64,000 bases of DNA from an uncultured bacterium (GCA_964604705.1 CAZSAP010000001.1:363500-427499), one strand, 5' to 3'. Counted from the stretch's first letter, positions 9,601 to 32,531 are shown. Translations and numbers: made by a program. The notes: generated from the sequence alone by a model not told the origin.

Positions 9601-9671
9601 TGCCATGTCGAACAAAGTGAGAAATCTTGTTTGTCAAAGACAGCTCTCTCACCAGCGTTCGAGATGACAAC
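9601..9671 (-). promoter_or_regulatory. Conserved structured element (copy 2) upstream of cargo gene C
   Basis: On the minus strand, GTTGTCATCTCGAAC...GTTCGACATGGCAG forms a 13-bp closing helix with the bulge at the same position as copy 1. It has compensatory differences (GAG/CUC becomes AAC/GUU) and an internal GUGAGA...UCUCAC helix. Confidence 0.4.
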
Positions 9672-9708
9672 TCATTTTTTAAAAAACAACATAGCTGATA
9701 TTTTATCA

Positions 9709-9740
9709 TCGTAGGGGCGACCCGGTGGTCGCCCCTACGA
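9709..9740. terminator. Perfect 14-bp stem hairpin between cargo genes D and C
   Basis: tcgtaggggcgacc-cggt-ggtcgcccctacga, followed on the plus strand by attttcttttgtaattttt. On the minus strand it lies 57 nt after the D stop codon. Confidence 0.5.
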
Positions 9741-9796
9741 ATTTTCTTTTGTAATTTTTAATCACTTTCCATTTTCAATTTTCAATTCTCGATTTT

Positions 9797-11665: not shown

Positions 11666-11725
11666 TCGCTACTCCTTTTGGCTATGCCGATTTTCTATTC
11701 TCTTTTTTCTATTGTCTTTTAATGT

Positions 11726-13630: not shown

Positions 13631-13681
13631 TCGCTACTCCTTTTGGCTACGCCGATTTTCTATTCTCTATTTTCTATTGTT

Positions 13682-15850: not shown

Positions 15851-15954
15851 GATTACTCGCCTTTGTGTGAATTTCCCTGCAGAAGGGTGCCAGAGACGGC
15901 AGAGATCTTACCAAATCAACCTTCAGGGTACAACCTTTTGGTTCAATGACAATT

Positions 15955-15997
15955 GTAAAAAAAAAAACGCCCTTTTTGGAAATCCCAACGGGGCGTT
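15955..15997 (-). terminator. Rho-independent terminator downstream of cargo gene G
   Basis: aacgccc (15966-72) pairs with gggcgtt (15991-97). On the minus strand it is followed by an 11-T run (rc of the a-run at 15950-15965). Confidence 0.6.
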
Positions 15998-16081
15998 TTC
16001 CGAACGTTAAAACACTAGGCCGACCGCCGGTCGCCTCTACGTTTTTTTAAACTTCACTTTCCATTTTCGATTCTCGATTTT

Positions 16082-18202
16082 CTATCTTACCACCGCGACT
16101 TTGGTCTTCCCAATCTCTTTCCCATCCTGCACAACGCGCACCATGTACAAGCCCGGTGCGATGGACCCACAGTTCCATATCACACTGGCTGTGGTTTCAC
16201 CGCTTACCTGCGCGTTTAAGGTTGCCACACGTTCGCCGCTCATGTTGTATATCTGTATCTTCGCCTCGCCATTACTTGTAGGCAAAAAGGCGATGGTGAT
16301 TTTTTCTTTACCTGGATTGGGATACGCTAAAAGTTTTTTACCAAAAAGATTTAAGCTTGATCGCTCAGGTGATGCTGTGGGCGTGGGGGTCACAGTTGAA
16401 GTCGTTGTGGTAGTAGCAGTCTGAGTAATGGTTGCCGATACTGTGAGTGTGGGCGTGACTGTAGCAGTTATTGTGTGCGTAGCGGAATGAGTGTAGGTCG
16501 CTGACACAGTCAGCGTGGGCGTAACGGTTGCTGAGGCTGTGGCTGTAGGCGTACCCGTAGGTGTCATGGTCGTGGTACTGGTACGCGTGGCGGTTGGACT
16601 TGAGGTCCGGGTTGGTGTAGCAGTAGGCGTGGCCGTGGCACTGGGCGTGGGTGTGAATGTTGGCGTCACGACCATGACATTGGTCGAATAACACGATGTG
16701 CCATACTGGGATTGATTCGTGGAGAGCGCACACACATTGTTCCCAGCAGAAAGCCCGCCTGCCACATTTACCGCCCAGGTATAAGGCCCGGTTCCACTAC
16801 TTGAGGTGGTGTATCCAAGTAACCTCAATGCACCGCCTTGATCGCCCCCAGTGCGATTGGCTTCTGCTGCATACACTTCCACATACTCTCCAGGATAATA
16901 CGACGTCCCCTCCACCCGAGTCGGTTGTGCAAGCGTGATCACCGGACGCATGGATGAAGGACGGATATTTTCATTATAGACATAGGGGTTGGTGTTGCTG
17001 CCCGCAAACCCGCATTGCGTGTTGCCGTAAAACTGATACAACCCCGTGCTCGGCGGTGCATACAATTGGGTGTTGTAAAGCAAATTGCCCACACCGCCGT
17101 TGGGTGTTCCGATGATGTTGCCGGTCGTGGTATTGTAAAAAGTAATATAACTAAAATCGCCAATCCCTTGTGTCCCGGCTACGTTGGTGCCAAAGCAATT
17201 GCCAACAACTGTATTACTGCTCGCTCCCGTATAAAAAATGACATGAGTCATATTGCCGGTAAATATATTTTTATCAAGCACCGGGTTGCTTCCGCCCACC
17301 AAATTCCCGGTTCCCTTGTCGAAAACAACGCCGTATTGGAACGGATGGATACCATTCGTACTGCTGATGCCTATCAAATTGTTTTGGATATAATTGTTGT
17401 TGCTGGGGTTGTAGCCCCCGATTCGAATGGCAGTTCCACCAGTGTTGTCCGAGTGGCCAAAAACATTACCCCACCCAGAGAGCGCAATACCCACCCGGTT
17501 GTTCCCGGTTCCGTCCACCATAAGATCAGCGCTAGCCATGCTAAACGTGCCATTGTTGATGGCAACAGACTGGTCAGAACTTAATCCGAATATATTTCCC
17601 GCAATCACATGATTGCTTCCATAGGCCATTACACCATAATTGGAATTGCCTGAAATGACATTACCCTCGCCTGCCAAGCGATCGCCGCCAATGAAAATGC
17701 GGTTGCCATTACCAATGTTGATTCCAATATAATTGCCCTGCCCACTGGAGTTATTCCAATCGGTTCCAATGGCGCAACGCATGATGCGGACATCACTTAC
17801 TTCATTTTCGATATCTATGGCATATAAAGAATGCACCAAGGCCATACCCGTCAGCGTGCTGCCCGAAGAATCATAACCTCCAGATCCAGTGTATTTGTCC
17901 ATGAAAAATATCGCAACGCTCGAAGCGCTGCGGGAGCCTATGGTTACTCCATTGCCTTCAATAATGACTGTATTTGTAATGACGATTTGGCTATAAACCG
18001 TGATGGAGTTGGGCACCTGGCAGACAATGGTCTGCACGCCCGTGGTGGTGTTCGAGGCGGCAATGGCCTGACGCAATGTTCCTGGACCGCTGTTTTCCCG
18101 GCTGGTGACCACGAACGTCTCTCCCCAGGCAGCCTGAGTACATATCAACAGTACGAGCATGGCAATCCAACTCAAATTCATTTTCGCCTTCATCATCTTC
18201 AA
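16082..18202 (-). CDS. Secreted CSLREA-motif beta-helix protein with Thr/Pro linker and T9SS-type C-terminal domain (cargo G; paralog of the edge gene at 1..1728)
   Basis: 706 aa. MNLSWIAMLVLLICTQAAWGETFVVTSRENSGPGTLRQAIAASNTTTGVQTI. C-terminus ...[59 protein letters not shown]. Confidence 0.8.
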   Translation of the reverse strand: MKMMKAKMNLSWIAMLVLLICTQAAWGETFVVTSRENSGPGTLRQAIAASNTTTGVQTIVCQVPNSITVYSQIVITNTVIIEGNGVTIGSRSASSVAIFFMDKYTGSGGYDSSGSTLTGMALVHSLYAIDIENEVSDVRIMRCAIGTDWNNSSGQGNYIGINIGNGNRIFIGGDRLAGEGNVISGNSNYGVMAYGSNHVIAGNIFGLSSDQSVAINNGTFSMASADLMVDGTGNNRVGIALSGWGNVFGHSDNTGGTAIRIGGYNPSNNNYIQNNLIGISSTNGIHPFQYGVVFDKGTGNLVGGSNPVLDKNIFTGNMTHVIFYTGASSNTVVGNCFGTNVAGTQGIGDFSYITFYNTTTGNIIGTPNGGVGNLLYNTQLYAPPSTGLYQFYGNTQCGFAGSNTNPYVYNENIRPSSMRPVITLAQPTRVEGTSYYPGEYVEVYAAEANRTGGDQGGALRLLGYTTSSSGTGPYTWAVNVAGGLSAGNNVCALSTNQSQYGTSCYSTNVMVVTPTFTPTPSATATPTATPTRTSSPTATRTSTTTMTPTGTPTATASATVTPTLTVSATYTHSATHTITATVTPTLTVSATITQTATTTTTSTVTPTPTASPERSSLNLFGKKLLAYPNPGKEKITIAFLPTSNGEAKIQIYNMSGERVATLNAQVSGETTASVIWNCGSIAPGLYMVRVVQDGKEIGKTKVAVVR

Positions 18203-18336
18203 CTCTCCATGGTTTAGAAAATTAGGGTGTTACGGGCATGATTGCTACGCAAAAAACGTAGGCAAGCCTAATGCTCTTAAGTTTATCAAATGAACCATGA
18301 GTATGCAATCTCCACACCGTGGAATCGTTCCTTTTG

Positions 18337-18378
18337 TAAAAAAAAAAAGCGCCTCCGGCGTTACCACCAGAGGCGCTT
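18337..18378 (-). terminator. Rho-independent terminator of glnA
   Basis: agcgcctc (18348-55) pairs with gaggcgct (18370-77). On the minus strand it is followed by T10 (rc of the a-run at 18338-18347). Confidence 0.65.
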
Positions 18379-18397
18379 AATTCACTAACTTTACGGT

Positions 18398-19819
18398 TTA
18401 GATGTCGTAGTACATCTTGAATTCGTACGGATGCGGACGCAAGTCAATGGCTTCGACTTCGTTCTCCATCTTGTAATCAATCCAGGTATCGATAACATCC
18501 TTGGTGAACACGTCGCCTTTCAGCAAGAACGCGTGATCGGCCTTCAAGGCGTTCAAGGCTTCGCGCAAGGAACCCGGAGTCTTGGCAACCTTGGACGCTT
18601 CTTCGGCCGGCAAGTCATAGATGTTCTTATCCAGCGGCTTGCCTGGATCGATCTTGTTCTGGATACCATCGGCAGCAGCCATGGTCAAGGCCGAGAATGC
18701 CAAGTACGGATTGCAGGACGGATCGGGGCAGCGGAACTCGATGCGCTTGGCCTTGGGGCTGTTGCTGTACATCGGGATGCGCACCGCGGCGCTGCGGTTG
18801 CGGCTGGAGTACGCCAAGTTAACCGGAGCTTCGTAACCCGGGACCAAACGCTTGTAGCTGTTGGTGGTCGGGCTGGTCAAGGCCAACAAGGCCGGAGCAT
18901 GCTTCAGGATACCGCCAATGGCCCACAAGGCTGTCTGGGACAAGCCTGCATAACCGTCGCCGGCGAACAAATTCTTGCCGTCTTTCCACAATGAGAAGTG
19001 GCAGTGCATGCCGCTGCCGTTATCGCCGAAGAGCGGCTTGGGCATGAAGGTCACGGTCTTGCCGGCCTTGTGAGCGGTGTTGCGCACCACGTACTTGAAC
19101 ATCAACAGCTGATCGGCCATCTTCACCAGCGGATTAAACTTGATACCGATTTCGCACTGTCCGGCAGTCGCCACTTCGTGGTGGTGAACTTCCACTTCAA
19201 TGCCCATATCCTGCAGGTTCAGGGTCATCTGGCTGCGCAAATCAACCAAGGTATCGGTTGGGGGGACCGGGAAATATCCTTCTTTATGACGGATCTTGTA
19301 GCCCAAGTTCGGCTTCTCGTCGCGCCCGGTATTCCAAACACCTTCACTGCTGTCAATGTGGTGATACGATTCATGCGAGTTCGTGTCGTAGCGAATCTCG
19401 TCGAAAATGAAGAATTCGGCTTCCGGACCGAGATACGCGGTATCGGCCACACCCGAGCTCTTCAAGTAGTTCTCAGCCTTAATGGCAATGTGCCGGGGAT
19501 CGCGGTCATAATCCTTGCGGGTCACGGGATCCAGGATGTTGCAGATCATGACCAAGGTCTTGACGGTCATGAACGGATCAATGAACGCCGTTTCCGCAAC
19601 CGGTACAATCAACATGTCGGATTCGTTGATGGCCTGCCAGCCGCGAATCGAGGAGCCGTCAAACCCCTTCCCGTTGACAAACGTATCTTCATCAATTGCA
19701 GATACCGGAAAGGTCGTGTGCTGCCAAATCCCCGGAAAATCCATAAAGCGCAAATCCACCATCTGTACATTTTCTTTCTTGATCAGTTCGAGTACATCTT
19801 TGGGCGACTTAATATCCAT
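18398..19819 (-). CDS. glnA: Glutamine synthetase, type I
   Basis: 473 aa. [38 protein letters not shown] matches the GSI N-terminus. AGGAGG RBS. Confidence 0.9.
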
Positions 19820-19898
19820 TGCATTCCTCCTGGTAATGTTCAGCCGATGCGCCTAAACATCGGTGACTATATCTACAGCCAACGTCCAGCCCTTATAT

Positions 19899-19915
19899 AG
19901 CAACACCTATGCCAA
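19899..19915 (-). promoter_or_regulatory. Sigma-54 (-24/-12) promoter of glnA
   Basis: Minus-strand TTGGCAT-AGGTG-TTGCT, with GG-N10-GC spacing, about 85 nt upstream of the glnA ATG. Confidence 0.6.
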
Positions 19916-20037
19916 TTTATTTAGCGTCCTTGTTTTTTTTTATCCTTTAAAAACAAGCACTTTTACTCACTCTCAATCCAAGCCCAGTTTCTCAATCTTA
20001 CAAAAATACAAATGTGTATTAATGCTTTTAAAAATTA

Positions 20038-21612
20038 CTACTCATTTGTAGCCAGATTCTTTTTACTGGTCTTATACAGTTTGGGATCAATGTTGTATTT
20101 CTGAAGTCGATAATTGAAAATACGCTCAGTGAGACCGAGTTCGGCTGCGGCTCGTTTCTGAAACCCCCGATTTTTCTTGAGTGCATCAATAATCAACTCA
20201 CGCTCTTTATTACTGACAATCTCACTCAACGAACCGGCTTGTGTCACGGCTTCGTTGCTGGTAACCATCCGCAAAGAAGGCGGCAAATGCTCCGAACGAA
20301 TGACATCCCCATCGCAGAGCAACACGGCCCGTTCTAAGCAATTTTCCAATTCACGTACATTCCCCGGCCAATGATAGCTGGTCAACATTTCTATGGCCGG
20401 TGTGGAAATTCGCAAGATGTTTTTGTGGTTCCGCTTCCCATAGGTCTCCAGGAAAAAGTCCGCCATCAACATAATGTCATCCTTGCGATCACGCAAAGCC
20501 GGCAAATAGATGGGAAAAACATTAATCCGGTAGTACAAATCCTCACGGAAAGAACCGTGCTTAATGGCTTCTTCCAAGTTTTTATGCGTGGCCGCAACAA
20601 TACGCACATCCACCTTAATGGTTTCACGTCCGCCCAACCGCTCAAACTCGCGGGTTTGGAGCACGCGCAACAGCTTCACCTGTAAATTCGGTGGAAAGTC
20701 GCCGATTTCATCCAAGAATAAAGTACCACCGTCCGCCCATTCAAATCGTCCTATTTTGCGTTCCAGAGCACCGGTAAATGCACCCTTTTCATGGCCAAAA
20801 AGTTCACTCTCCAACAATGTCTCCGGGAACGCATTGCAATTTACTTTGATCAAGGGTTTGGAGGCGCGCGGACTGGCGTAGTGAATGGCGTTGGCCACCA
20901 ATTCCTTACCCGTACCACTCTCCCCGCGGATTAATACCGTAGAAGGGCTGTCTGCGACTTGCTCAATTAATTTATAGACTTCTTGCATGGCATTGGAATT
21001 CCCCACCATGTTTTGAATGCTAAACTTGCCTTTCAAGTCTTGCTTCAAGCGTAAATTTTCATCACGCAAGATTTGTCGATCCTGTTCAACCCTGCGGTTA
21101 AGCCGAATGGCTTGAGCAATCATAGGGGTCATGATTTTTAAAATCTTCAAATCGTCTTCCAGATCATGCGCGCCATCGTATTCCTTATCCACACTCAAGG
21201 CCCCGATGGTGTTCCCCTCAATCTTGATCGGGACACACAGAAACGCGATCTGGCGTGTGCTCTTTATGTCGCGTGCACCCGTACGGTTCAAAAAGCGGCT
21301 GTCTTTGCGAATATCCGGAATGGTCACCGAACGTCCGGTTTGCACCACCTTTCCGGTAATCCCTTCGCCCACACGATAGCGCCCTAGTTCCTGAGCTTTG
21401 GCAGATAAACCGTGGGCTATGGAAATATTCAACATGCTGGTCTTCTCGTCCAAAAGCGTGATGGTTCCGCGATCCAACTTGCGCTTGTCTGAGAGCAGCT
21501 GCAAAATCCCGCGCAACATGGCATTGAGATCAATGGTGTCGGCCACAATCCCTGCTGTTGCCAACAAGAGTTCTATTTGTTCTTCATTTACATTTTTGAC
21601 AGTTGAAGGCAT
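20038..21612 (-). CDS. Sigma-54-dependent transcriptional activator (GAF sensor + AAA+ GAFTGA domain + Fis-type HTH; NifA/NtrC-like, no receiver domain)
   Basis: 524 aa. ESGTGKELVANAIHYAS, GAFTGA, and C-terminal AAAELGLTERIFNYRLQKYNI. The N-terminal ~170 aa are GAF-like. Confidence 0.85.
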   Translation of the reverse strand: MPSTVKNVNEEQIELLLATAGIVADTIDLNAMLRGILQLLSDKRKLDRGTITLLDEKTSMLNISIAHGLSAKAQELGRYRVGEGITGKVVQTGRSVTIPDIRKDSRFLNRTGARDIKSTRQIAFLCVPIKIEGNTIGALSVDKEYDGAHDLEDDLKILKIMTPMIAQAIRLNRRVEQDRQILRDENLRLKQDLKGKFSIQNMVGNSNAMQEVYKLIEQVADSPSTVLIRGESGTGKELVANAIHYASPRASKPLIKVNCNAFPETLLESELFGHEKGAFTGALERKIGRFEWADGGTLFLDEIGDFPPNLQVKLLRVLQTREFERLGGRETIKVDVRIVAATHKNLEEAIKHGSFREDLYYRINVFPIYLPALRDRKDDIMLMADFFLETYGKRNHKNILRISTPAIEMLTSYHWPGNVRELENCLERAVLLCDGDVIRSEHLPPSLRMVTSNEAVTQAGSLSEIVSNKERELIIDALKKNRGFQKRAAAELGLTERIFNYRLQKYNIDPKLYKTSKKNLATNE

Positions 21613-21848
21613 ATCTCACTCTTCTATATTGAATTGACAAAATTCAGCGCGGGCCAATTTATAACATTTTTGTATTTATGTAAAGAATTTAAACTACTTT
21701 TTTGAAAAAAAACCATACTTCCAGACATACACTTCCCTAAACCCTGAACATCCGGATAAATTTTTCTTCGCAATAAAACACACATAAAAGAAGCTTTTCC
21801 AGAAATCACAACTACCAAAATGTAGTTAAAATACAAATTCCTACACCT

Positions 21849-21865
21849 TCGGCATATTAATTGCT
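21849..21865 (+). promoter_or_regulatory. Sigma-54 (-24/-12) promoter of amtB1-glnK1
   Basis: cGGCATattaaTTGCt: GG at 21851-52 and GC at 21863-64 (N10 spacing), about 60 nt upstream of the ATG at 21926. Confidence 0.55.
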
Positions 21866-21925
21866 TTTAACTACAACTTCGAAATTATGATAAAAATCAT
21901 TACGCGAATCAAAGGAGCTACACAA

Positions 21926-23248
21926 ATGAAGCGTTATTTTTCACGATGGCTTAAACACCCCAGCTGGGCATTCGTCATTCTAGGCGTATTGGGTTTACCT
22001 GCGTTGGCCGCCGCCGAAGGATTGGCCATCAGCGCTGGAGACACTGCCTTTATTTTCTTGACGACCGCCTTAGTCATGCTCATGACTCCGGGATTAGGCT
22101 TGTTTTACGGAGGCATGGTCCGTCAAAAAAACGTGCTCGGCACCATCATGCAAAGTTTTGTGGCCGTGGGCTTCATCAGTTTGCAATGGGCGCTGATTGG
22201 CTATTCCCTCTCGTTTGGCCATTCCCAGCACGGGCTCATTGGCGGTTTGGACTTTTTAGGCTTGCATAACGTCGGACAAGGGCCCAACGCCGATTACGCA
22301 GCCACCATTCCTCACATGTTGTTTATGCTCTTTCAATGTATGTTTGCCGTGATCACCCCCGCGCTCATCAGCGGTGCGTTTGCTGAGCGCTTTAAATTTT
22401 CGACCTTTGTCGTGTTTATCCTGCTTTGGGCCACCGTCGTCTACGATCCCATTGCCCATTGGATTTGGGGGAACGGAGGGTGGTTACGCCAATTGGGGGT
22501 GCTTGATTTTGCCGGAGGCATGGTTGTACATATTTCCGCAGGCATGGCCGCCTTGGTGGCCGCACTCCTGGTAGGCAAACGCAAAATGACCGCCAACGCC
22601 ACCATCCTGCCCCACAACATGACCATGGTTTTGCTCGGAACCGCCTTGCTTTGGTTCGGGTGGTTTGGGTTTAACGCCGGGTCCGCCCTGGCGGCCAATG
22701 GTGTGGCCATCTCGGCTTTTGTCTGCACCAATTTCGCCGGTGCCTCCGCCATGGTGGTCTGGATGCTGATTGAATGGTTGGTTCGCGGTAAAGCTACGGC
22801 CTTAGGTGCGGCTTCAGGCGCCATTGCCGGTTTGGCGGCCATTACCCCAGGGTCCGGATTTGTAAAACCGCATGACGCCATCATTATAGGCGCCATCGCC
22901 TCCCCACTTTGTTTTTACGCAATCCAATTAAAGAACAAGTACAACTACGACGATACGCTCGATGCGTTCGGCGTACACGGCATCAGCGGCATATGGGGTA
23001 CATTGGCCACCGGACTCTTCGCCACCACCTCGGTGAATCCGGCGGGAGCCAACGGATGGTTCTACGGCAACCCCAAACTTTTTTGGATTCAGAGCTTCGG
23101 CGCCTTGGTCGTCGCAGCTTTTGCGTTCGCAGCCACATTTATCATTATCAAAGTACTCGATCTAACCATGGGCATGCGCTTAAAGGATCACGAAGAAATG
23201 ATTGGAATGGATTTGACGCAACATGGCGAGGCAGGATATCATATGTAA
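21926..23248 (+). CDS. amtB: Ammonium transporter (Amt family), copy 1
   Basis: ATG at 21926 with AAGGAG 8 nt upstream (the track ORF starts at 21887). Signal-like N-terminus. Amt motifs DFAGG.VVHI and GAAS/GAIAG. Confidence 0.88.
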   Translation: MKRYFSRWLKHPSWAFVILGVLGLPALAAAEGLAISAGDTAFIFLTTALVMLMTPGLGLFYGGMVRQKNVLGTIMQSFVAVGFISLQWALIGYSLSFGHSQHGLIGGLDFLGLHNVGQGPNADYAATIPHMLFMLFQCMFAVITPALISGAFAERFKFSTFVVFILLWATVVYDPIAHWIWGNGGWLRQLGVLDFAGGMVVHISAGMAALVAALLVGKRKMTANATILPHNMTMVLLGTALLWFGWFGFNAGSALAANGVAISAFVCTNFAGASAMVVWMLIEWLVRGKATALGAASGAIAGLAAITPGSGFVKPHDAIIIGAIASPLCFYAIQLKNKYNYDDTLDAFGVHGISGIWGTLATGLFATTSVNPAGANGWFYGNPKLFWIQSFGALVVAAFAFAATFIIIKVLDLTMGMRLKDHEEMIGMDLTQHGEAGYHM

Positions 23249-23321
23249 CAACTCCCCCTCACTCCCCCTCTTTACCAAAAAGGGGGGACGGGGGGCGTTA
23301 TTCCACGAAAGGAATATTTCC

Positions 23322-23663
23322 ATGAAAAAGATTGAAGCCTTTATTCAACCCGAACAATTCGAGAGTGTTAAGAAAGAGCTTTTTGCCGCTCAGGTCTTTA
23401 AAATGAGCGTTTCCCAAGTGCGCGGATGTGGCCAACAAAAAGGCTATACCGAAAGTTTTCGGGGACAAATCGTAGAGATAAATCTCTTGCCCAAAACCAA
23501 GATCGAAATTGCCGTTAATGAAGATTTCGTACAACCCACCATTGACGCCATTATCCGAGGGGCGCGGACCGGTAATATCGGCGATGGCAAAATTTTCGTG
23601 ACGGAATTGCTGCAATGCATTCGCGTCCGCACCGGAGAGACCGGTCACGACGCCATTGGTTAA
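23322..23663 (+). CDS. glnK: Nitrogen regulatory protein P-II, copy 1
   Basis: MKKIEAFIQPEQFESVKKELF...RTGETGHDAIG. 113 aa, AAGGA RBS, immediately downstream of amtB1. Confidence 0.88.
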   Translation: MKKIEAFIQPEQFESVKKELFAAQVFKMSVSQVRGCGQQKGYTESFRGQIVEINLLPKTKIEIAVNEDFVQPTIDAIIRGARTGNIGDGKIFVTELLQCIRVRTGETGHDAIG

Positions 23664-23933
23664 TTGCTCCCCAAGAAAATCGCATCAACCTCCAACCTTC
23701 AAACAACAATGTCGCGATTCCCTTCTGAGGGATCGCCTAATTTAAAAAATACATTTATGAATTAATTATATAATTCGATACACAATTGAAATAATAACAA
23801 ATATGATTTTTGGTCTTTTTTAAAAAAAAAATTTCATCCCACAAAAAAACTCCCCGTGTCTATCCTTTAATTTCAAGACTTTACATCAAGATCCTTTACC
23901 CCGGCTTGTAATAAACACTACCATCCTTTTCCA

Positions 23934-23951
23934 TTGGCATCCATCTTGCAT
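23934..23951 (+). promoter_or_regulatory. Sigma-54 (-24/-12) promoter upstream of the porin gene
   Basis: TTGGCAT-CCATC-TTGCA: GG at 23936-37 and GC at 23948-49, about 140 nt upstream of the ATG at 24094. Confidence 0.55.
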
Positions 23952-24093
23952 TAGTCCTAGGCAAATGGAAATAACCCACGGTTAATGACTATTGGGTAGG
24001 AAAGGAGCTGGCTCGCTATGAAACCCACTAAGGCAAAGATTTAACGACAGATCTACCGAGTGCGTTCAAATAAAAAAACACAAGGAGAATATC

Positions 24094-25170
24094 ATGAAAA
24101 AAATCACGATTTTGAGTTTACTGAGCTTGAGTCTAATCGGAACTATGGCAGGAGCGGAAGAAGCAAAAAGCTTGAAGTGGTACGACAAAATTGCTGTAAG
24201 CGGTTACTTGGATGCCTATTACCAAGCTAATTTCAATGGTTTAAGCGGTAGCATCACCGGTCGGGCGTTCGACAGCCGGCAGAATGAATTTTCGTTCTCT
24301 GGTGCGAAGGTCTCCATGTCCACAACGGATCCTTCCACCGGTGTCGGTGGTGTGCTCGATTTGCTGTACGGCCCCACGTCCATGTTGGTAACAGGCGGAC
24401 CTGTCGAGCAGGCGTTCGCGACCTTCTCCTTAGGCCCCATCGGATTCAAGGCCGGTAAGTTCACCACGCATGTCGGCTACGAAGTTATTGAAACACCCCT
24501 AAACTTGAACTACAGCCGTTCGATTTTGTTCAACCAAGTTCCCTTCTACCATGTCGGCGCCCTGGCCACTTACACCCCGCTGGAAGGTGTTGCCATGATG
24601 GCTGGAGTGGTTAACTCGAATTCAGCTGAACAAGCCAATGACGAAGCCAAGGATTATGCAGCCCAAGTAACTTTCAGCAAGATTGCCGGACTTAGCTTGA
24701 TTGCCAATTATTATCTCGAATCCAATCGTGCGGCCACAGCCGATGCCCCTTTTGAAAACACCCACTATATGGAAGTCGTGGGCAATTACCAAGCCTTGCC
24801 TGTACTTGGATTAGGTTTGGACTATCTGTACAAAACCACGCTGCCATCTCCGGCCAAAGATGCTGACGGCAATCCGCTCGGCAGCGCCTCCAGCACCAAG
24901 TCGCAAGGGTATGCACTCTATGCAAACTACGTCACACCGATCAGCGGACTTTCGGTGCTTCCGCGCTTTGAACAGTGGTACGCCCCGGACGTGTACGCCT
25001 TGGCCTTCGACTATACGCTGACGCTTAAATACGCCATGGGGGCTCTTACCCATGCCCTCGAACTCCGCAAAGATATCGCCTACCCAGGCGTATACGCCCC
25101 CAAGGCCGGAGAAACTGAATTGCTTAGCGATCAAATGACTTTAACGTACGGAGTTATGTACAGTTTCTAG
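24094..25170 (+). CDS. Outer-membrane beta-barrel porin (signal peptide, C-terminal Phe)
   Basis: MKKITILSLLSLSLIGTMAGA signal peptide. Alternating amphipathic strands. Ends ...TLTYGVMYSF. Confidence 0.65.
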   Translation: MKKITILSLLSLSLIGTMAGAEEAKSLKWYDKIAVSGYLDAYYQANFNGLSGSITGRAFDSRQNEFSFSGAKVSMSTTDPSTGVGGVLDLLYGPTSMLVTGGPVEQAFATFSLGPIGFKAGKFTTHVGYEVIETPLNLNYSRSILFNQVPFYHVGALATYTPLEGVAMMAGVVNSNSAEQANDEAKDYAAQVTFSKIAGLSLIANYYLESNRAATADAPFENTHYMEVVGNYQALPVLGLGLDYLYKTTLPSPAKDADGNPLGSASSTKSQGYALYANYVTPISGLSVLPRFEQWYAPDVYALAFDYTLTLKYAMGALTHALELRKDIAYPGVYAPKAGETELLSDQMTLTYGVMYSF

Positions 25171-25245
25171 CAAACCGTTTCTTCGATTTAAGCACGAAAA
25201 CCACTTGAACGAATGGGCGTTTAAGCATACAATTATCCCTTCAAA

Positions 25246-25285
25246 CCCCTGTCCGTGATTGCTGCGGACAGGGGTTTAATTTTAA
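25246..25285 (+). terminator. Rho-independent terminator of the porin gene
   Basis: cccctgtccg-tgattgctg-cggacagggg, a perfect 10-bp stem, followed by tttaatttt. Confidence 0.7.
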
Positions 25286-25313
25286 ATCCGTAAAAGAAGG
25301 ATAGTAAACGTCC

Positions 25314-27287
25314 ATGTTTAAAAAGCTTAAACAATTGTTTCTCGGTAAAGCCATCAACCCCACCCAAGCCGGCATCTTTCATCAGCTCAGTCTGGTCGCC
25401 TTTATGGCTTGGGTCGGTTTGGGTGCCGACGGGCTTTCCTCGTCAAGTTACGGTCCCGAAGAACTCTTTCGGGCCTTAGGACCCGAACACACCCATTTGG
25501 CCTTATATTTGGCTGTGGCTACGGCCATTACCGTGTTTATCATTGCCGCCAGCTACATGCAAATCATTAAGCTCTTCCCAGCCGGTGGCGGCGGTTATGT
25601 GGTTGCCAGCAAGTTCCTGGGATCCAAAGCCGGGGTGGTTTCAGGTACCGCCCTTATCGTCGATTACATCTTAACCATCTCCCTATCTATTGCCGCCGGT
25701 GTGGACGCGATATTCAGCTTTTTGCCTCCGGAATGGATCGGCGCCAAAGTGACTACCGAGGCCGCACTATTGTTGATCCTTATTTGGATGAACATGCGCG
25801 GACTAAAAGAAAGCATCAAAGTATTAATGCCTATTTTTATTGCTTTTTTAGTCACCCATGTCATCTTACTCTCGGCCGGCATTTTCGGACACGCCCACGG
25901 TCTCCCCAACGCGGTACAGGCCACGTTCAGCGAAACGCAACAAACCATTTCCCAAATCGGCTGGTTTGGCCTGTTGGCGCTCCTCTTACGCGCCTACAGC
26001 TTGGGCGCCGGTACCTATACTGGAATCGAAGCCGTTTCCAATGGTATGTCCACCTTGCGTGAACCCCGGGTTCAAACCGGACATAGAACCATGTTGTACA
26101 TGGCGATTTCCTTGGCCATCACCGCCGGCGGCATCTTGCTCAGCTACATGTTGTGGGATGTTCGAATACTTCCCGGAAACACCCAAACGCTCAATGCCGT
26201 ACTCACAGAAAAAGTAATGGGTGGTTGGCAATGGGGGAACATCCCCATCGGTCAATGGCTTATCTACCTCACATTAATTTCCGAGGCGCTCCTTTTGTTC
26301 ATCGCTGCCCAAACTGGGTTCGTGGGAGGTCCCACCGTCCTGGCCAACATGGCAGTGGACTCCTGGGTCCCCCACCGTTTTGGCGATCTCTCCGATCGAC
26401 TGGTTCGTACCAACGGAATTATATTCATGGGCATCACATCCTTGGCCATCCTGATACTGGCCAAAGGAAGTGTGCATATTATGGTGGTGCTATACTCCAT
26501 TAACGTCTTCATCACCTTCTCCCTTTCCCAATTGGGTACCTGTCTGCACTGGTGGAAAATACGCAAGACCGACAAACAATGGTTTTCCGGATTTATGATC
26601 AACGGCATCGGACTCATTTTAACCACACTTATTTTAGTAGTGACCACCGTGCTCAAATTCACTCAAGGCGGTTGGATGACGTTGGTCATCACCGGCGGGT
26701 TGGTAATTCTGTGCGCGGTTATTAAGTTCCATTATTCCAACATACGCAAAGCCTTAGGTCGTTTGGATGAACTTTTGACCAACCTCACGGTTACTAATCC
26801 CCATCCGGTTACTGCCGAGTGCGATCCAACACTCCCGACCGCGATTCTGCTGGTCAGTGGCTACAACGGACTCGGGATTCACTCCATCTTCTCGATCCGA
26901 AAGCTTTTCCAAGATAAGTTCAAGAATTTCGTCTTCATTTCCGTGGGACGCGTGGATTCCAGTCGGTTTAAGGGGATTGAGGAAATCGAAAACTTAAAGC
27001 TCGCAACTGAAAAAAGCCTACAGCAATATGTAACCATGGCTCAGCATATGGGATACGCAGCCGAGTACCGATATGTGCTGGGTACCGACGTTATCGAAGA
27101 AATCGAAAAAATGTGTGATGAATTGGCTCGCAACTTCAGCGAACCGATTTTCTTTGCCGGGAAATTGATCTTTGCCAAGGAAAACTTTTTCTCGAAAATA
27201 TTGCACAATCAGACGGCCTTGGAAATCCAACGCCGCCTGCTTTTCAAAGGTAACAACATGGTCATCGTACCCATACGCGTTTTATAG
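25314..27287 (+). CDS. APC-superfamily permease with ~200-aa C-terminal cytoplasmic domain
   Basis: 657 aa. Twelve predicted TM segments with an APC-like GxG-rich TM1, plus a soluble C-terminal domain. Confidence 0.65.
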   Translation: MFKKLKQLFLGKAINPTQAGIFHQLSLVAFMAWVGLGADGLSSSSYGPEELFRALGPEHTHLALYLAVATAITVFIIAASYMQIIKLFPAGGGGYVVASKFLGSKAGVVSGTALIVDYILTISLSIAAGVDAIFSFLPPEWIGAKVTTEAALLLILIWMNMRGLKESIKVLMPIFIAFLVTHVILLSAGIFGHAHGLPNAVQATFSETQQTISQIGWFGLLALLLRAYSLGAGTYTGIEAVSNGMSTLREPRVQTGHRTMLYMAISLAITAGGILLSYMLWDVRILPGNTQTLNAVLTEKVMGGWQWGNIPIGQWLIYLTLISEALLLFIAAQTGFVGGPTVLANMAVDSWVPHRFGDLSDRLVRTNGIIFMGITSLAILILAKGSVHIMVVLYSINVFITFSLSQLGTCLHWWKIRKTDKQWFSGFMINGIGLILTTLILVVTTVLKFTQGGWMTLVITGGLVILCAVIKFHYSNIRKALGRLDELLTNLTVTNPHPVTAECDPTLPTAILLVSGYNGLGIHSIFSIRKLFQDKFKNFVFISVGRVDSSRFKGIEEIENLKLATEKSLQQYVTMAQHMGYAAEYRYVLGTDVIEEIEKMCDELARNFSEPIFFAGKLIFAKENFFSKILHNQTALEIQRRLLFKGNNMVIVPIRVL

Positions 27288-27353
27288 CATACCTTGGGGA
27301 CAAGGCATTCCTTGCCCTACCATTAACTAACGGTTTTCGCGGAGCTATACACC

Positions 27354-28724
27354 ATGACGTCCATAGCCGAGTATTGGTCCAGTTTAAGCGCCGGCAAGGT
27401 GCTATTAAACATTTTTCCCTTCGCCTTGTTGTTACTGCTTATCGCCGTTATGCCACTGTGGAACTCGGTCGCCCATTGGTGGGAAAAAAACACCAACAAA
27501 TTAATCGTCGCACTTGTTTGTGGAAGCGCCGGGGTTCTTTTGTATGTAATCCCAACCCACGACGGCGCCCATCTTCTAAATACCGTTTTGGAGTATGCGG
27601 CGTTTATCAGCCTCTTGGCCGCACTTTTCATTGTCAGCAGCGGCATCGTTATTTCCGGTGCGTTTGCAGGTTTCCCCTGGATCAATACACTGTTTCTAGG
27701 CATCGGCGCCTTGTTGGCCAGTTTACTGGGCACAACCGGCGCCAGCATGCTCTTGATTCGCCCCCTTATCCGAGCCAATCGCCTGCGCAAACATAAAACC
27801 CACATTATCGTTTTCTTTATTTTTATCGTTAGCAATTGCGGCGGACTCTTAACCCCCCTCGGCGACCCCCCTTTATATCTCGGTTTTTTGCGCGGAGTTC
27901 CTTTTTTCTGGACCCTCCAACTCTTCCCCGAGTGGTTGGTAACCAACTTTCTGTTGCTGGTGGTTTTCCATTTCCTGGATGAACGGTATTTTTTCAAGGA
28001 AGAACTCGCCACTAAAAACGAATTGGCTCAAGAAATCGCCAATGCTGAAAAACCACTGCATATTCGCGGAAAACGCAATTTCATTTATCTCGCCGCGGTT
28101 CTCGCCACTGTGCTTTTATCCGGTTCGGTGTTACCCTCTGTCTTGCACGCGTGGCTGACTCCCGAACACGCCGAACATTGGGCCAAGGTCGCCCAAATCA
28201 TCCTTTTGGGTAGCATTGCCTGGTTTTCTTTCCGCAACACACCGTCCTCCATTCATGAACACAATCATTTTAGTTCTGCCCCGATTGTCGAAGTCGCAGT
28301 CTTGTTCTTGGGTATTTTCGGAGCCATGCTCCCAGCCTTGGCCGTGTTGGAACATTCCGCCCCGCGACTTCCCATTGACCAAGCTTGGCACTATTTTTGG
28401 CTTACCGGACTCCTGAGCAGCTTTTTGGATAATGCCCCGACATATATGTCTTTTGCAGCCTTGGCTGCCGGTAAATCGAACCTCAATGCTGAGCACCTTG
28501 GAGCCTTGGCGGCCCAGGCACCCAATTTGTTAAAAGCCATTGCCACAGGCGCTGTGTTTATGGGCGCCAACACCTACATTGGCAACGGCCCCAATTTCAT
28601 GGTCAAATCCATTGCCGAACATGCGCACATTAAAATGCCCTCTTTTGGCGGTTACATGCTCTGGTCCTTCGCTGTACTTATTCCTATTTTCTTCATTAAC
28701 ACGCTTATTTTTTTCAAACCTTAA
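27354..28724 (+). CDS. ArsB/NhaD-superfamily ion transporter (NhaD/arsenite-permease-like)
   Basis: 456 aa polytopic membrane protein. Motifs GGLLTPLGDPPL and FLDNAPTYMSF are typical of the ArsB/NhaD/CitMHS permease fold. Confidence 0.6.
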   Translation: MTSIAEYWSSLSAGKVLLNIFPFALLLLLIAVMPLWNSVAHWWEKNTNKLIVALVCGSAGVLLYVIPTHDGAHLLNTVLEYAAFISLLAALFIVSSGIVISGAFAGFPWINTLFLGIGALLASLLGTTGASMLLIRPLIRANRLRKHKTHIIVFFIFIVSNCGGLLTPLGDPPLYLGFLRGVPFFWTLQLFPEWLVTNFLLLVVFHFLDERYFFKEELATKNELAQEIANAEKPLHIRGKRNFIYLAAVLATVLLSGSVLPSVLHAWLTPEHAEHWAKVAQIILLGSIAWFSFRNTPSSIHEHNHFSSAPIVEVAVLFLGIFGAMLPALAVLEHSAPRLPIDQAWHYFWLTGLLSSFLDNAPTYMSFAALAAGKSNLNAEHLGALAAQAPNLLKAIATGAVFMGANTYIGNGPNFMVKSIAEHAHIKMPSFGGYMLWSFAVLIPIFFINTLIFFKP

Positions 28725-28875
28725 TCCCCCGACCCTTCTTACTTTCGTTTACAAATTATAACCAAATTGTATTTATTTATATTTTTACTTCTTATTTGTA
28801 TTTTATTTCATAATTACAACTAAAATGTCATACCGCTTTTTCCTGTATTTAAAGGTTTTTCAGCCTTCTTGTGAC

Positions 28876-28893
28876 TTGGCACAGCCTTTGCTT
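28876..28893 (+). promoter_or_regulatory. Sigma-54 (-24/-12) promoter of amtB2-glnK2
   Basis: cTTGGCAC-AGCCT-TTGCTt: TGGCAC at 28877-82 and TTGC at 28888-91. This is a perfect consensus, about 85 nt upstream of the ATG at 28978. Confidence 0.7.
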
Positions 28894-28977
28894 TATATGG
28901 AGCAGTTGAATAGGCAAGGGTGTCAACCGTCAACGATGAGACGACACATCATCGTAAATACGAAAGGAGTGGTTCTC

Positions 28978-30306
28978 ATGTTTAAAGACATACTGGTACG
29001 TTGGTTCAAGAAGTGGGGATTGCAAGCAGGTGCACTAACGCTTTTGGGATTGCCTTCGGTGGTCTCAGCCGCCGAAGGGGTTCCGCTTAACACAGGGGAT
29101 ACAGCCTTTGTTATGGCGTCCTCGGGTTTGGTCATGCTCATGACGCCGGCCTTGGGATTGTTTTACGGAGGCATGGTGCGCCAAAAAAACGTCCTTGCCA
29201 CCATCATGCAAAGTTTCATTGTACTCGGCTTGATCAGTGTCCAATGGGCACTCTTTGGCTACTCGCTGGCTTTCGGTCCTGACCACGGACATCTCATTGG
29301 CGGACTCGACTTTCTCGGACTTAACGGAGTAGGTCAAACACCCAACGCCGACTATGCGGCGACCATACCCCATCAAGTATTCATGGTATTCCAAGCTATG
29401 TTCGCGGTTATCACGCCGGCGCTCATCAGCGGAGCCTTTGCCGAACGCGTTAAGTTTTCCAGTTTTCTAGTCTTTATTCTGCTTTGGTCAACGTTCATCT
29501 ACGACCCCTTGGCACATTGGGTATGGGGTGTGGGTGGCTGGTTGCGCAACTTAGGTGCCTTGGATTTTGCCGGCGGTACGGTAGTGCACATCGCCTCCGG
29601 GTCGGCAGCTTTGGTGATGGCATTGTATCTCGGCAAGCGTCGGGGTTACCCCAAAGCCTCGATCATGCCACATAACATGACCATGGTCTTGATCGGAACA
29701 GCCTTGCTTTGGTTTGGTTGGTTCGGTTTCAATGCGGGTTCCGCCCTCTCGGCCAATGGTTTGGCGGGTACGGCGTTTATTGTGACGAACTTAGCCGCGG
29801 CCGCAGCAATGCTGTCCTGGGCGTTTGTGGAGTGGATTGTGCGCAAGAAACCCACCGCATTGGGCGCCGCTTCAGGTGCCGTCGCCGGTTTGGTTGCCAT
29901 CACACCGGCATCGGGTTTTGTTGGTCCCATGGATGCCATTATCATCGGTTTGCTGGTATCCCCCATCTGTTTTGGGGCCATTCAGATCAAGAACAAGCTC
30001 GGGTACGATGATTCATTGGATGCCTTCGGCGTGCACGGCGTAGGTGGAACCTGGGGCGCCATTGCCACCGGATTGTTTGCCAATGTTTCAATCAACTCAG
30101 CAGGCGCCAACGGTTTGTTCTACGGCAACCCCAAGCTTCTTGGGATTCAAGCGGTTGCGGTTGTGGCCACCGCCGTCTTCTCGATGTTGGGAACATACAT
30201 TTTGGTGTTCTTGGTGGATAAGGTCATGGGCATGCGGGTAGCAGAACACGAGGAACAAATCGGTCTGGATTTAACCCAACACGGTGAAGCCGGATATCAC
30301 ATGTAA
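28978..30306 (+). CDS. amtB: Ammonium transporter (Amt family), copy 2
   Basis: ATG at 28978 with AAGGAG 8 nt upstream (the track ORF starts at 28825). Paralog of 21926..23248 with the same C-terminal ...[12 protein letters not shown]. Confidence 0.88.
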
Positions 30307-30377
30307 GACTGTTGGATCACAATTATCGTAGGGACGGACGAAAATACGTACCCTACATTAAAAGGAGGATTAACATC

Positions 30378-30719
30378 ATGAAAAAAATCGAAGCGTACAT
30401 TCAACCCGAGCAATTTGAAAATGTAAAAAAAGAATTATTTGCAGCCGAGGTATTTAAAATGACCGTCTCCCATGTTCGTGGCTGCGGACAGCAAATGGGC
30501 TACACCGAAAGTTTCCGGGGACAAGTGGTCGAAATCAATTTGTTGCCCAAGATCAAGCTCGAGATCGCCGTGAACGACAACTTTGTGCAACCCACCATCG
30601 ACGCCATCATCAAAGGAGCGCGTACCGGGAACATAGGTGATGGGAAAATTTTCGTATTGGATTTGCCGCAGTGCATTCGTGTGCGCACGGGTGAAACCGG
30701 AAAAGACGCCATCGGCTGA
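30378..30719 (+). CDS. glnK: Nitrogen regulatory protein P-II, copy 2
   Basis: [21 protein letters not shown]...[22 protein letters not shown]. Confidence 0.88.
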
Positions 30720-30739
30720 TTCAAGCCGTAGGCACACCA

Positions 30740-30780
30740 CGCGAGGGCGGCCCTCCCCCGGCTGCTCTCGCGTTTTTTTT
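30740..30780 (+). terminator. Rho-independent terminator after glnK2 (also faces the convergent GNAT gene)
   Basis: GC-rich hairpin cgcgagggcggccctcccccggctgctctcgcg followed by T8. Confidence 0.65.
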
Positions 30781-31270
30781 AGGTATTTAATTTCAGGGCC
30801 AGAAAAATCCCCGCATGCTGATGTTCGTTGTAACGGGCCACGGGTTTGAAGCCATAGCGTTCAAACATAACAAGCGCGGATTTCTGTTCGTGGTGGAGCG
30901 CCACCAAAACTTCAAAATACTCCGCCTTACGGGCAAAGGTCAGAGCTTGATCAACCAACGCTTTCCCCCACTTACGTTTGCGAAATTCCGGCATGACGTA
31001 AAGCCTGCGTAACTCACATGTTTTTTTGGCCAAGGGCATGACCCCAACCATCCCAACCGCATGCGGTTGGCCCAAGGTTCGCACCAACCAGATCGATCCT
31101 CGCGGCGGCGCATAGATGTTCAGGGGCTGGGTGATGTCCTGATCCAGGGCATGAAACTCCGGAACCATATCCAATTCCTGAAAATACGTTTTCGTGAGTT
31201 TTATAAATTCCGACAGATTCTCGGGCGAAAGCACTTCCAATTTAAATTCCGGATTTTGCATGTTAGGCAT
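30779..31270 (-). CDS. GNAT-family N-acetyltransferase
   Basis: 163 aa. Acetyl-CoA-binding motif RRLYVMPEFRKRKWGKALV (the R/Q-x-x-G-x-G/A region). Confidence 0.75.
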   Translation of the reverse strand: MPNMQNPEFKLEVLSPENLSEFIKLTKTYFQELDMVPEFHALDQDITQPLNIYAPPRGSIWLVRTLGQPHAVGMVGVMPLAKKTCELRRLYVMPEFRKRKWGKALVDQALTFARKAEYFEVLVALHHEQKSALVMFERYGFKPVARYNEHQHAGIFLALKLNT

Positions 31271-32531
31271 TTCCCTTCTGTCGTGACATAAATGTGCGTA
31301 GGGTGCGAATCCGTTCCACCAGGGGTGGATGCGAGTAATGAAAGGCCGCGTACCAGGGATGTGGGTGCAAATTACTGAGGTTGTCTTTAAACAAACGAAT
31401 CAGCGCATCGGCCAGGGCGTCCGGGTCCCGGGTTATCTCTGCGGCAAACGCATCGGCTTCCCGTTCGTGCTTCCGGCTAAAATAGCAGCTTATGGGTTCG
31501 AAAAAAAAGGCGAGCACCGACCCGATGAAGAGCAGCCCCACCACATGGGCATAAAACGATCCGTGGTGCAGATGAAAGATGTCCGAGATCCAAGATGCAC
31601 GCAAGCCCCAGAAAGCGGCGTAGCACACACCCAAGGCTACGATTTCAGTAATCACCAAACGCTGCAAAATATGTTTCTTTTTCCAATGCCCCACTTCGTG
31701 CGCCAAGACTGCCAAGAGTTCGCGGGGAGCGGTTTGTTGGAGCAAGGTATCGAATAAGACAATGCGTTTCACCGGGCCAATGCCCGTAAAATAGGCATTG
31801 GTATGCTTGCTACGTTTGGAGGCATCGCTTTCAAACACACGGCTGACGCGCAAACCCGCCTTGGCCATCAAATCACGAATCGCCTCCACCAGTTCCGGTT
31901 GTTCCACAGGTTTAAATTTATTAAACAGCGGCTCAATAACATACGGTGATAGCAGCAGCATAATCAGCGAAAAAACAAAGAAGAAAACCCACACCCAGAG
32001 CCACCAGGTCTCAGGGAAACGTTGGATCAGGATCAAGCCGCCACCCAGCAGCACACCCATCAGTACCGAAGACAACACCAATGACTTTATGGTATCGGTT
32101 ACCCAAAGCCACGGTGTCATGGTGTTGAAACCAAAGCGTTGTTCAAGCCGGAAGGTCTGATACCACCCCAACGGAAGCCCAATCATGGTTGTCAAGATCA
32201 CCAGCCCCAGAAAATAAAAGATCCCTTGAACGACAAACGGCAACGCAGGAAAAGACATCCAGACATTGTACGCATCCCAAAGTCCACTGTAAAAAAAGAC
32301 GACGACACTGGCTGCGTTGAAAAGCGCAACCACGTTGGCAAACTTCATTTTGGCCAGAGTATAGGCTTGTGTCTTGGCCAAAAGCTCTGTCTGAACCACG
32401 GCCTCAAACCCTTCTGGAACGACCATCCCATAGCGTTCAAGATGCTTCCGGTTGAGATATTCCAGGACATACTCCACGGCCACCGTCAGAAGAAAGAACC
32501 CAAGTATCCACCACCGCCACGTTTCCAGCAT
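31263..32531 (-). CDS. M48-family zinc metalloprotease (Ste24/HtpX-like), membrane-embedded
   Basis: 422 aa. N-terminal TM helices. HEXXH in LAHEVGHWKKKH. Confidence 0.8.
   Translation of the reverse strand: MLETWRWWILGFFLLTVAVEYVLEYLNRKHLERYGMVVPEGFEAVVQTELLAKTQAYTLAKMKFANVVALFNAASVVVFFYSGLWDAYNVWMSFPALPFVVQGIFYFLGLVILTTMIGLPLGWYQTFRLEQRFGFNTMTPWLWVTDTIKSLVLSSVLMGVLLGGGLILIQRFPETWWLWVWVFFFVFSLIMLLLSPYVIEPLFNKFKPVEQPELVEAIRDLMAKAGLRVSRVFESDASKRSKHTNAYFTGIGPVKRIVLFDTLLQQTAPRELLAVLAHEVGHWKKKHILQRLVITEIVALGVCYAAFWGLRASWISDIFHLHHGSFYAHVVGLLFIGSVLAFFFEPISCYFSRKHEREADAFAAEITRDPDALADALIRLFKDNLSNLHPHPWYAAFHYSHPPLVERIRTLRTFMSRQKGNA

Follow-up and report, generated by a model that had tools for sequence, protein, structure and literature searches.

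Candidate nitrogen-assimilation regulon with four σ54 promoters and a receiver-less NifA-family activator in an uncultured bacterium

Introduction

Which regulator acts at σ54-type promoters of nitrogen-assimilation genes when the activator encoded among them has no receiver domain? The question is raised by a locus in the genome of an uncultured bacterium (GCA_964604705.1 CAZSAP010000001.1:363500-427499), a 64-kb stretch referred to here as the window, whose positions serve as coordinates throughout. The locus comprises glnA, two amtB-glnK pairs, an outer-membrane porin gene, two permease genes and the gene for a GAF/AAA+/Fis-type activator (Table 1); within the 64-kb window there is no ntrB, ntrC, glnD or nif gene and no histidine kinase gene.

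Enhancer-binding proteins act as dimers at paired dyads, assemble an ATPase ring and contact σ54 RNA polymerase by DNA looping; at glnAp2, NtrC uses a pair of dyad sites ~100–140 bp upstream, separated by about three turns of the helix. At the present locus, control of glnA, both amtB-glnK operons and the porin gene from four σ54 promoters is a well-supported prediction, and a conserved paired site links these promoters, on sequence evidence, to one regulator. The adjacent receiver-less activator, of the NifA family, is the most likely protein to use these paired sites.

Predicted σ54 promoters

The σ54 consensus tested has GG at −24 and GC at −12, 10 bp apart, within TGGCAC-N5-TTGCW. The preliminary description had proposed four such promoters in the locus, and all of them are found, in the right orientation and displaced by 1 bp at most: upstream of glnA, amtB1-glnK1, the porin gene and amtB2-glnK2, each intergenic and 50–145 nt ahead of a real start codon. 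The exact motif TGGCAY-N5-TTGC occurs four times in the window (0.63 expected; none of 100 shuffles reached four), and three of these matches are the glnA, porin and amtB2 sites; the other, at 59745, lies inside a methyltransferase open reading frame (ORF) and is taken as chance.

A scan of the window with an approximate σ54 matrix, based on the published consensus, divides the four: the amtB2, porin and glnA elements are the window's top three scores, whereas the amtB1 element ranks eighth and is at chance level by score. In shuffled windows the median best score is ~15.3 bits and ~4.4 sites score at least 13 bits; the matrix score alone is not decisive. It is position, orientation and conservation, not score, that take the four promoters beyond chance, and the amtB1 promoter is accepted despite its score because it is conserved in related loci.

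Elements of this type stand at equivalent places in eight related loci, and conserved elements precede orthologous genes in L081–L090, L002, L008 and L015. All four promoter positions are represented in related loci: the glnA element in seven of them (L081, L082, L084, L086, L089, L090 and L002), the amtB1 element in five (L081, L082, L084, L086 and L089; TGGCACATATTTTGCT in L082), the porin element as an identical 16-mer in L081, and the amtB2 element likewise at an equivalent place. In the regions aligned, the elements persist in intergenic DNA that has otherwise diverged. It is thus very improbable that the elements are chance matches and the genes transcribed from σ70 promoters: single-site scores of 13.7–15.5 bits do fall within the range of best shuffled-window scores, but the excess of exact matches, the placing of the three top scores upstream of nitrogen genes in the right orientation, the conservation just described and the intact GAFTGA activator encoded next to the elements all speak against this explanation.

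A receiver-less activator of the NifA family

The activator consists, by Pfam, of a GAF domain (residues 28–169), a Sigma54_activat domain (202–368; PF00158, E = 3e-75), an AAA_lid domain (374–455) and an HTH_8 helix-turn-helix (HTH) domain (470–506), with intact Walker A (GESGTGKE, 230–237), GAFTGA (277–282) and Walker B (DE, 301–302) motifs. No match to Response_reg was obtained, the N-terminus being the GAF domain, so that domain searches agree with the receiver-less architecture proposed earlier. The protein passes the NCBIfam model for NifA (TIGR01817) marginally, by 3.5 bits (532.4 bits; cut-off 528.85), and falls far short of that for NtrC (TIGR01818; 356 bits, cut-off 558.6). Residues 12–509 align with Azotobacter vinelandii NifA (E = 2e-120), and the GAF region (residues 12–185) is similar to that of Aquifex Nlh1 (E = 4e-23).

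In a structure model built from a shallow alignment only the GAF domain and the linker helix are good, the AAA+ domain having a predicted local distance difference test (pLDDT) score below 50; the GAF domain is confident and a single 46-residue helix (151–196) leads into the AAA+ domain. A Foldseek comparison with the PDB returned only AAA+ matches of high root-mean-square deviation and nothing beyond the sequence comparison.

It is quite likely, from the family match together with the sites and gene neighbourhoods described below, that the activator is a one-component NifA-family protein regulating ammonium assimilation, not nitrogenase. The suggestion that control at this locus is NifA-like rather than NtrBC-like is supported by the same three lines: the NifA-family match, the conserved locus and the paired upstream sites.

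Paired dyads upstream of the promoters

Each of the four promoters is preceded, 80–195 bp upstream, by a pair of TACA-N4-TGTA dyads 29–32 bp apart. The dyad was found by aligning the regions upstream of 22 such promoters, followed by an iterative matrix search that converged on AAATACATTTTTGTATTT (core TACA-N4-TGTA) with two sites per promoter; no second conserved upstream motif emerged from this search. Within the window the pairs are strong at glnA, where site 2 overlaps the activator stop codon, and at amtB1, moderate at the porin gene and degenerate at amtB2. In L081, a 90% relative, the porin orthologue has dyads with 8/8 and 7/8 matches, likewise 29 bp apart, and the amtB2 orthologue has two 7/8 dyads at that same spacing, better preserved than those of the window.

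The pairing is seen with a matrix whose training set left out both the window and L081: across the 64 kb, 12 positions reach 9 bits or more, eight of these falling within 20006–28801, and there are only two pairs spaced 27–34 bp, those at glnA (20006, 20038) and amtB1 (21662, 21694); no such pair arose in 20 shuffles. A training-free count, in which sites were picked by their matches to TACA-N4-TGTA and spacing was never a criterion, places the two best matches 28–33 bp apart in 21 of the 27 promoter regions, compared with a mean of 1.9 and a maximum of 6 in shuffles. Four Spirochaete loci and one from a deltaproteobacterium, with activators 52–54% identical to that of the window, also have dyad pairs upstream of their σ54 promoters.

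The classical NifA site TGT-N10-ACA is absent from the four upstream regions of the window. It occurs, in place of the dyads, in an alphaproteobacterial locus beside nifH (L027) and in Gallionella (L020), with activators 39–42% identical. The HTH recognition helix reads L(T/S)ER(I/M) in the activator's clade and TPRQ(I/V)(A/G)Y in proteobacterial NifA, including the proteins of these two loci; upstream-site type and recognition helix thus change in parallel. Links of the dyad to NtcA (GTA-N8-TAC) and to TnrA/GlnR (TGTNA-N7-TNACA) were considered and rejected, since half-site orientation and spacing differ in both cases.

An additional dyad at amtB1, 25 bp upstream of the −24 element, has an equivalent in L081 (TACGTAAATGTA) and is missing from more distant relatives; one possible role is to cap expression when the activator is abundant, through low-affinity binding. 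Its repressor-like position, together with the AT-richness of both the motif and the surrounding intergenic DNA, would suit an explanation in which the dyads are recognised by some other protein, perhaps a repressor or a nucleoid-bending protein, and the activator's real sites are elsewhere. This is improbable: placement at −80 to −195, pairing at about three turns and dyad symmetry are typical of activator dimers, as with NtrC at glnAp2, the motif is found together with this clade of activators and changes in step with the HTH, and the motif search yielded no other candidate site.

Outside the nitrogen locus, the window's only other exact TACA-N4-TGTA lies at 59087–59098, with a 6/8 partner 33 bp away, ~130 bp upstream of a σ54-like element (AGGCACGATATATGCA, 58960–58945, 14.0 bits). 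This element precedes, within the region 58481–59131, a 136-residue ORF without a Pfam match (58481–58891, minus strand; ribosome-binding site GGGAGG), which is either a fifth regulon member or a chance arrangement.

Related loci

Close relatives of the activator were found by exact-protein look-ups; a scan of genome contigs with the activator was swamped by the generic pattern FGHEKGAF and returned mostly unrelated activators of at most 54% identity, with no close relatives. The closest homologues, 70–90% identical, belong to uncultured bacteria that carry the label Firestonebacteria or candidate division FCPU426, and a large group labelled Phycisphaerae or Sedimentisphaerales has activators ~65% identical. 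Lineages given here rest on such names or on resemblances: FCPU426/Firestonebacteria-like, Phycisphaerae-like, Spirochaetota and one deltaproteobacterial locus. The activator clade, its synteny, the promoters and the dyad pairs recur in the first three of these.

In six loci of the FCPU426/Firestonebacteria group, amtB-glnK is divergent from the activator gene, which is followed by glnA; the adenylyltransferase gene glnE is nearby in four of the six. Two Phycisphaerae-like loci have the order activator, a 256–258-residue protein, amtB, glnK, glnA and gltB, with gltD in one of them and a second amtB-glnK pair in one; the glt genes point the same way as the glnA that precedes them. Genes for Spirochaete homologues (48–54% identical) are followed by a σ54 promoter and then by glnA, or by a ~1.4-kb gene and glnK. 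More distant homologues (39–46% identical), of acidobacterial, Cyclobacteriaceae and alphaproteobacterial origin, are encoded less than 10 kb from nifH, directly adjacent to it in three of four cases, and are presumably true NifA proteins; a nifH probe matched only more distant loci (L016, L018, L027 and L039).

These neighbourhoods bear on the possibility that the window's protein is itself a true nif-specific NifA with targets elsewhere, the four promoters being served by another activator such as an NtrC encoded outside the window. The score above the NifA equivalog cut-off, the name "Nif-specific regulatory protein" that homologues often bear in their sources, and a view confined to 64 kb of the genome all leave room for it. 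It is nevertheless unlikely: the cut-off is exceeded only narrowly, no nif gene is present in the window or among the called genes of ten related loci, the TGT-N10-ACA site is absent from the four upstream regions, the dyad pairs travel with the activator clade in several lineages, and the nifH-adjacent homologues are the more distant ones, the two examined differing in the HTH recognition helix.

Several side observations concern the gene content of these loci. GlnA of the window has an adenylylation-site motif (NIYDLP, residues 399–404); glnE adjoins glnA in L082, L083 and L086 and is nearby in L084 and L089, and it is absent from the window, where glnA is followed by a type IX secretion cargo gene. 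In L081 (4315–7278) a third amtB-glnK pair shares an operon with the porin gene, which comes first, and the GlnK of this pair has Tyr51; the window is without this third pair (24094–25313), and its porin gene directly precedes the promoter-like element and hairpin of the APC permease gene.

The first gene of the σ54-driven amtB operon in L087 (11751–12527) and L088 (11769–12539) encodes the 256–258-residue protein, which is probably an outer-membrane barrel, given its hydrophobic, signal-peptide-like N-terminus, C-terminal Phe and weak match to MipA; homology to the BBP2 porin is not detectable. An outer-membrane channel gene heading amtB operons may be a recurring theme. In L090 (13509–20815), a 75% relative, the gene after glnA encodes a second activator, one with a PAS domain, and a σ54 promoter at 15267 (TGGCATATTTATTGCT) comes next, ahead of genes for small Nitro_FeMo-Co (NifX/NifB-like) proteins, ferredoxins and CbiA/MinD-type Fe-S ATPases; nifHDK was not seen in this region.

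P-II proteins and the candidate signal

GlnK1 and GlnK2 both have Val51 and Gln49 in a T-loop ending (I/V)VEINLLPK and have no Tyr51; they are therefore without the uridylylation and phosphorylation sites used elsewhere. Val51 is also found in GlnK orthologues of L081–L089, and a Spirochaete orthologue has Thr51. The activator's F107 aligns with F119 of A. vinelandii NifA, the Phe being conserved; the F119S substitution in that NifA abolishes 2-oxoglutarate binding (PMC9866876). The NifL-NifA structure paper gives no residue-level 2-oxoglutarate pocket, the GAF domain not having been resolved.

With F107 kept, the GlnK proteins devoid of Tyr51 and GlnD, NtrB and NtrC missing from the window, the signal is tentatively taken, with low confidence, to be 2-oxoglutarate sensed directly, possibly with effector-dependent binding of GlnK.

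Proposed mechanism

A mechanism consistent with these features can be outlined. Activator dimers would occupy the paired TACA-N4-TGTA dyads, set about three helical turns apart and 80–195 bp upstream, on one face of the DNA. Under nitrogen limitation the GAF domain would release the AAA+ domain by way of the 46-residue helix; the activator could then assemble an ATPase ring and loop the DNA to σ54 RNA polymerase, opening the promoters of glnA, amtB1-glnK1, the porin gene and amtB2-glnK2. The releasing signal would most likely be 2-oxoglutarate at the GAF domain and/or binding of the regulon's own non-uridylylatable GlnK proteins. The GAF domain and single helix of the structure model fit the mechanism reported for Aquifex GAF activators, in which a GAF dimer and signalling helix keep the ATPase domains inactive until ligand binds (PMC9866876).

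The dyads in the amtB1-activator intergenic region overlap a σ70-like promoter of the activator gene, site 1 sitting in its spacer; this overlap suggests that the activator could repress its own gene.

Several points weigh against this account. Neither an RpoN box nor an rpoN domain occurs within the 64-kb window, and, since it passes the NifA equivalog cut-off, the activator could also act on nif genes in another part of the genome. The amtB1 promoter, at 13.7 bits, does not exceed chance on score alone; the porin and amtB2 dyads are degenerate (6–7/8), and AT-rich DNA inflates weak matches of this kind. F107 is conserved in most homologues, nifH-adjacent ones included, so that it does not identify the ligand and is permissive evidence only. 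The activator's σ70-like promoter, with 9 of 12 positions matching, is no better than chance in the promoter scan. The related loci are not independent samples, several being close relatives. Finally, we infer, and do not observe, occupancy of the dyads by the activator, the identity of the signal and autoregulation.

Locus features and neighbouring genes

The gene map of the nitrogen locus in the preliminary description is borne out by Pfam and NCBIfam domain searches of the window, from which the gene identities in Table 1 are taken; the transporter at 27354–28724 is assigned by Pfam to CitMHS_2, not NhaD. Some true starts lie inside the mechanical ORFs (amtB1 21926, glnK1 23322, amtB2 28978 and glnK2 30378). 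The terminators 3' of glnA and glnK2 are both strong. The mechanical ORF of amtB1 opens at 21887 and its likely true start is the ATG at 21926; in L091, an exact-match contig, the protein is likewise annotated with 440 residues.

Table 1. Features of the nitrogen locus in window coordinates. Scores in bits are from the approximate σ54 matrix (promoters) or from the dyad matrix trained without the window or L081 (upstream sites).
Feature	Position	Strand	Details
Intrinsic terminator 3' of glnA	18347..18378	-	14-bp stem, then T run
glnA, type I glutamine synthetase	18398..19819	-	Pfam and TIGR00653, 683 bits
glnA σ54 promoter	19899..19914	-	TGGCATAGGTGTTGCT; exact consensus, 15.4 bits
glnA upstream site 1	20006..20019	.	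ATACACATTTGTAT; exact TACA-N4-TGTA dyad
glnA upstream site 2	20038..20051	.	CTACTCATTTGTAG; 32 bp from site 1; also in L081
Activator gene	20038..21612	-	524 residues; receiver-less GAF + AAA+ (GAFTGA) + Fis-HTH, NifA family
Activator σ70-like promoter	21684-21656	-	TTTACA-17-TAAATT; 9/12 positions match, promoter scan
amtB1 upstream site 1	21662..21675	.	TAACATTTTTGTAT; 14.8 bits
amtB1 upstream site 2	21694..21707	.	CTACTTTTTTGAAA; 32 bp from site 1
Third amtB1 dyad	21812..21825	.	CTACCAAAATGTAG; 13.1 bits
amtB1-glnK1 σ54 promoter	21850..21865	+	CGGCATATTAATTGCT; CGGCAT-N5-TTGC, one consensus mismatch, 13.7 bits
amtB1, ammonium transporter	21926..23248	+	440 residues; Pfam/NCBIfam; start ATG with AAGGAG ribosome-binding site
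glnK1, P-II protein	23322..23663	+	Pfam/NCBIfam
Porin upstream pair	23750..23790	.	TACATTTATGAA and TACACAATTGAA; 29 bp apart, each 7/8 matches
Porin σ54 promoter	23935..23950	+	TGGCATCCATCTTGCA; exact match, 15.5 bits
BBP2 (OmpL-like) outer-membrane beta-barrel porin	24094..25170	+	Pfam PF07642, E = 4.7e-44
σ70-like element and hairpin	25205..25277	+	TTGAAC-17-TACAAT; 15-bp perfect hairpin, -28.8 kcal/mol, z = -5.7
APC permease	25314..27287		Pfam/NCBIfam
CitMHS_2 transporter	27354..28724		Pfam/NCBIfam
amtB2 upstream pair	28759..28801	.	TAACCAAATTGTAT and CTTCTTATTTGTAT; 29 bp apart, left half-sites degenerate
amtB2-glnK2 σ54 promoter	28877..28892	+	TGGCACAGCCTTTGCT; exact match, 18.3 bits, window's top score
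amtB2, ammonium transporter	28978..30306	+	442 residues; Pfam/NCBIfam; true start 28978
glnK2, P-II protein	30378..30719	+	Pfam/NCBIfam
Intrinsic terminator 3' of glnK2	30739..30773	+

The two permease genes had been described as co-located with a σ54-controlled porin gene. The co-location of APC and CitMHS_2 stands, but a σ70-like promoter of their own lies upstream, the matrix scan finds no σ54-like site before either, and they are probably not σ54 targets. The σ70-like element and perfect hairpin lie between the porin and APC genes, just upstream of the APC ribosome-binding site. Both are kept in L081, where the loop has diverged and both stand 3' of a glnK gene; on the strength of this conserved element and hairpin, membership of the two permeases in the porin's σ54 operon was rejected. 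The hairpin, which matches no Rfam family, could terminate transcription of the operon before it, stabilise a 5' end or act as an attenuator. More generally, an Rfam scan of positions 16000–32000 with E up to 1 gave no match, so the untranslated regions contain no riboswitch or leader of a known family.

The porin leader (~145 nt) has a perfectly conserved ribosome-binding site, GGAAAGGAGCTG (Shine-Dalgarno at ~23999–24007), and an 8-codon upstream ORF, MKPTKAKI* (24018–24044, plus strand). In L081 the surrounding leader has diverged and an 8-codon ORF, MQPSKAQD*, lies at the equivalent place; the upstream ORF may encode a regulatory leader peptide.

Seven large proteins with a C-terminal Por_Secre_tail sorting domain (type IX secretion) are encoded at 4746–18202 and 36554–39493, six of the seven consecutively beside the nitrogen locus; they also carry beta-helix/NosD, fibronectin type III or DUF285 repeats.

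Relation to known systems

The activator shares with A. vinelandii NifA (PDB 9qq6, chain C) full-length homology, the GAF/AAA+ (GAFTGA)/Fis-HTH architecture, the absence of a receiver and the equivalent of F119. It differs in its targets, which are glnA, amtB-glnK and a porin gene rather than nif genes, in the paired 12-bp TACA-N4-TGTA dyads that stand where NifA has TGT-N10-ACA, in its recognition helix (LTERIFNY, compared with TPRQIAY), and in having neither a Cys-rich interdomain linker nor a nifL gene in the window or the related loci. The system departs from NifA in two defining features, nif linkage and the TGT-N10-ACA site, and from NtrC in lacking the receiver.

With enteric NtrB/NtrC at glnAp2 and glnK-amtB the locus has in common its targets, σ54 promoters, the two-dyad layout of the enhancer and possibly negative autoregulation through an enhancer that overlaps a σ70 promoter. 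It differs from that system in its GAF sensor, the missing receiver, another DNA motif, P-II proteins without Tyr51 and the lack of ntrB, ntrC and glnD within the window. By analogy, the system would work like NtrC at glnAp2 and be built from a NifA-family protein.

Nlh1 and Nlh2 of Aquifex aeolicus (GAF structure 4g3k) have a homologous GAF domain and signalling helix. According to PMC9866876, which cites Batchelor et al. 2013, Nlh1 is "speculated" to regulate nitrogen assimilation, not fixation, and is said to be switched on when ligand binding in the GAF pocket frees the AAA+ domains. No description of an Nlh1 regulon, DNA site or ligand was found in the literature searched; the present clade offers explicit targets, promoters and an upstream motif.

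Surveys of σ54 regulons and reviews of NifA, within an incomplete coverage of the literature, yielded no characterised NifA-type regulator of glnA or amtB and no such dyad, and no experimental study of this arrangement was found in the literature searched. The parts and their logic are classical; the link from this clade to ammonium assimilation, the clade's enhancer code and its occurrence in several lineages appear undescribed. We lean slightly towards a broader proposal, that these activators form an uncharacterised, multi-lineage family of NifA-related one-component regulators that replaces NtrBC, has its own code of paired dyads ~30 bp apart, and senses 2-oxoglutarate through the GAF domain or non-uridylylatable P-II proteins.

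Implications

Control of nitrogen assimilation is known mainly for Proteobacteria (NtrBC, GlnD), Firmicutes (TnrA, GlnR), Actinobacteria and cyanobacteria (NtcA), and the papers that could be searched describe no characterised nitrogen regulator for the lineages considered here. If the proposal is true, the name "Nif-specific regulatory protein" would be wrong for many database entries from these lineages. Proteins of the clade lie at the edge of the NifA equivalog and are labelled as nif regulators, which can wrongly suggest nitrogen fixation in metagenome-assembled genomes. The locus and its relatives offer a concrete, testable model consisting of a regulator, a 12-bp dyad with a pairing rule, and a target set that includes an outer-membrane channel gene heading amtB operons.

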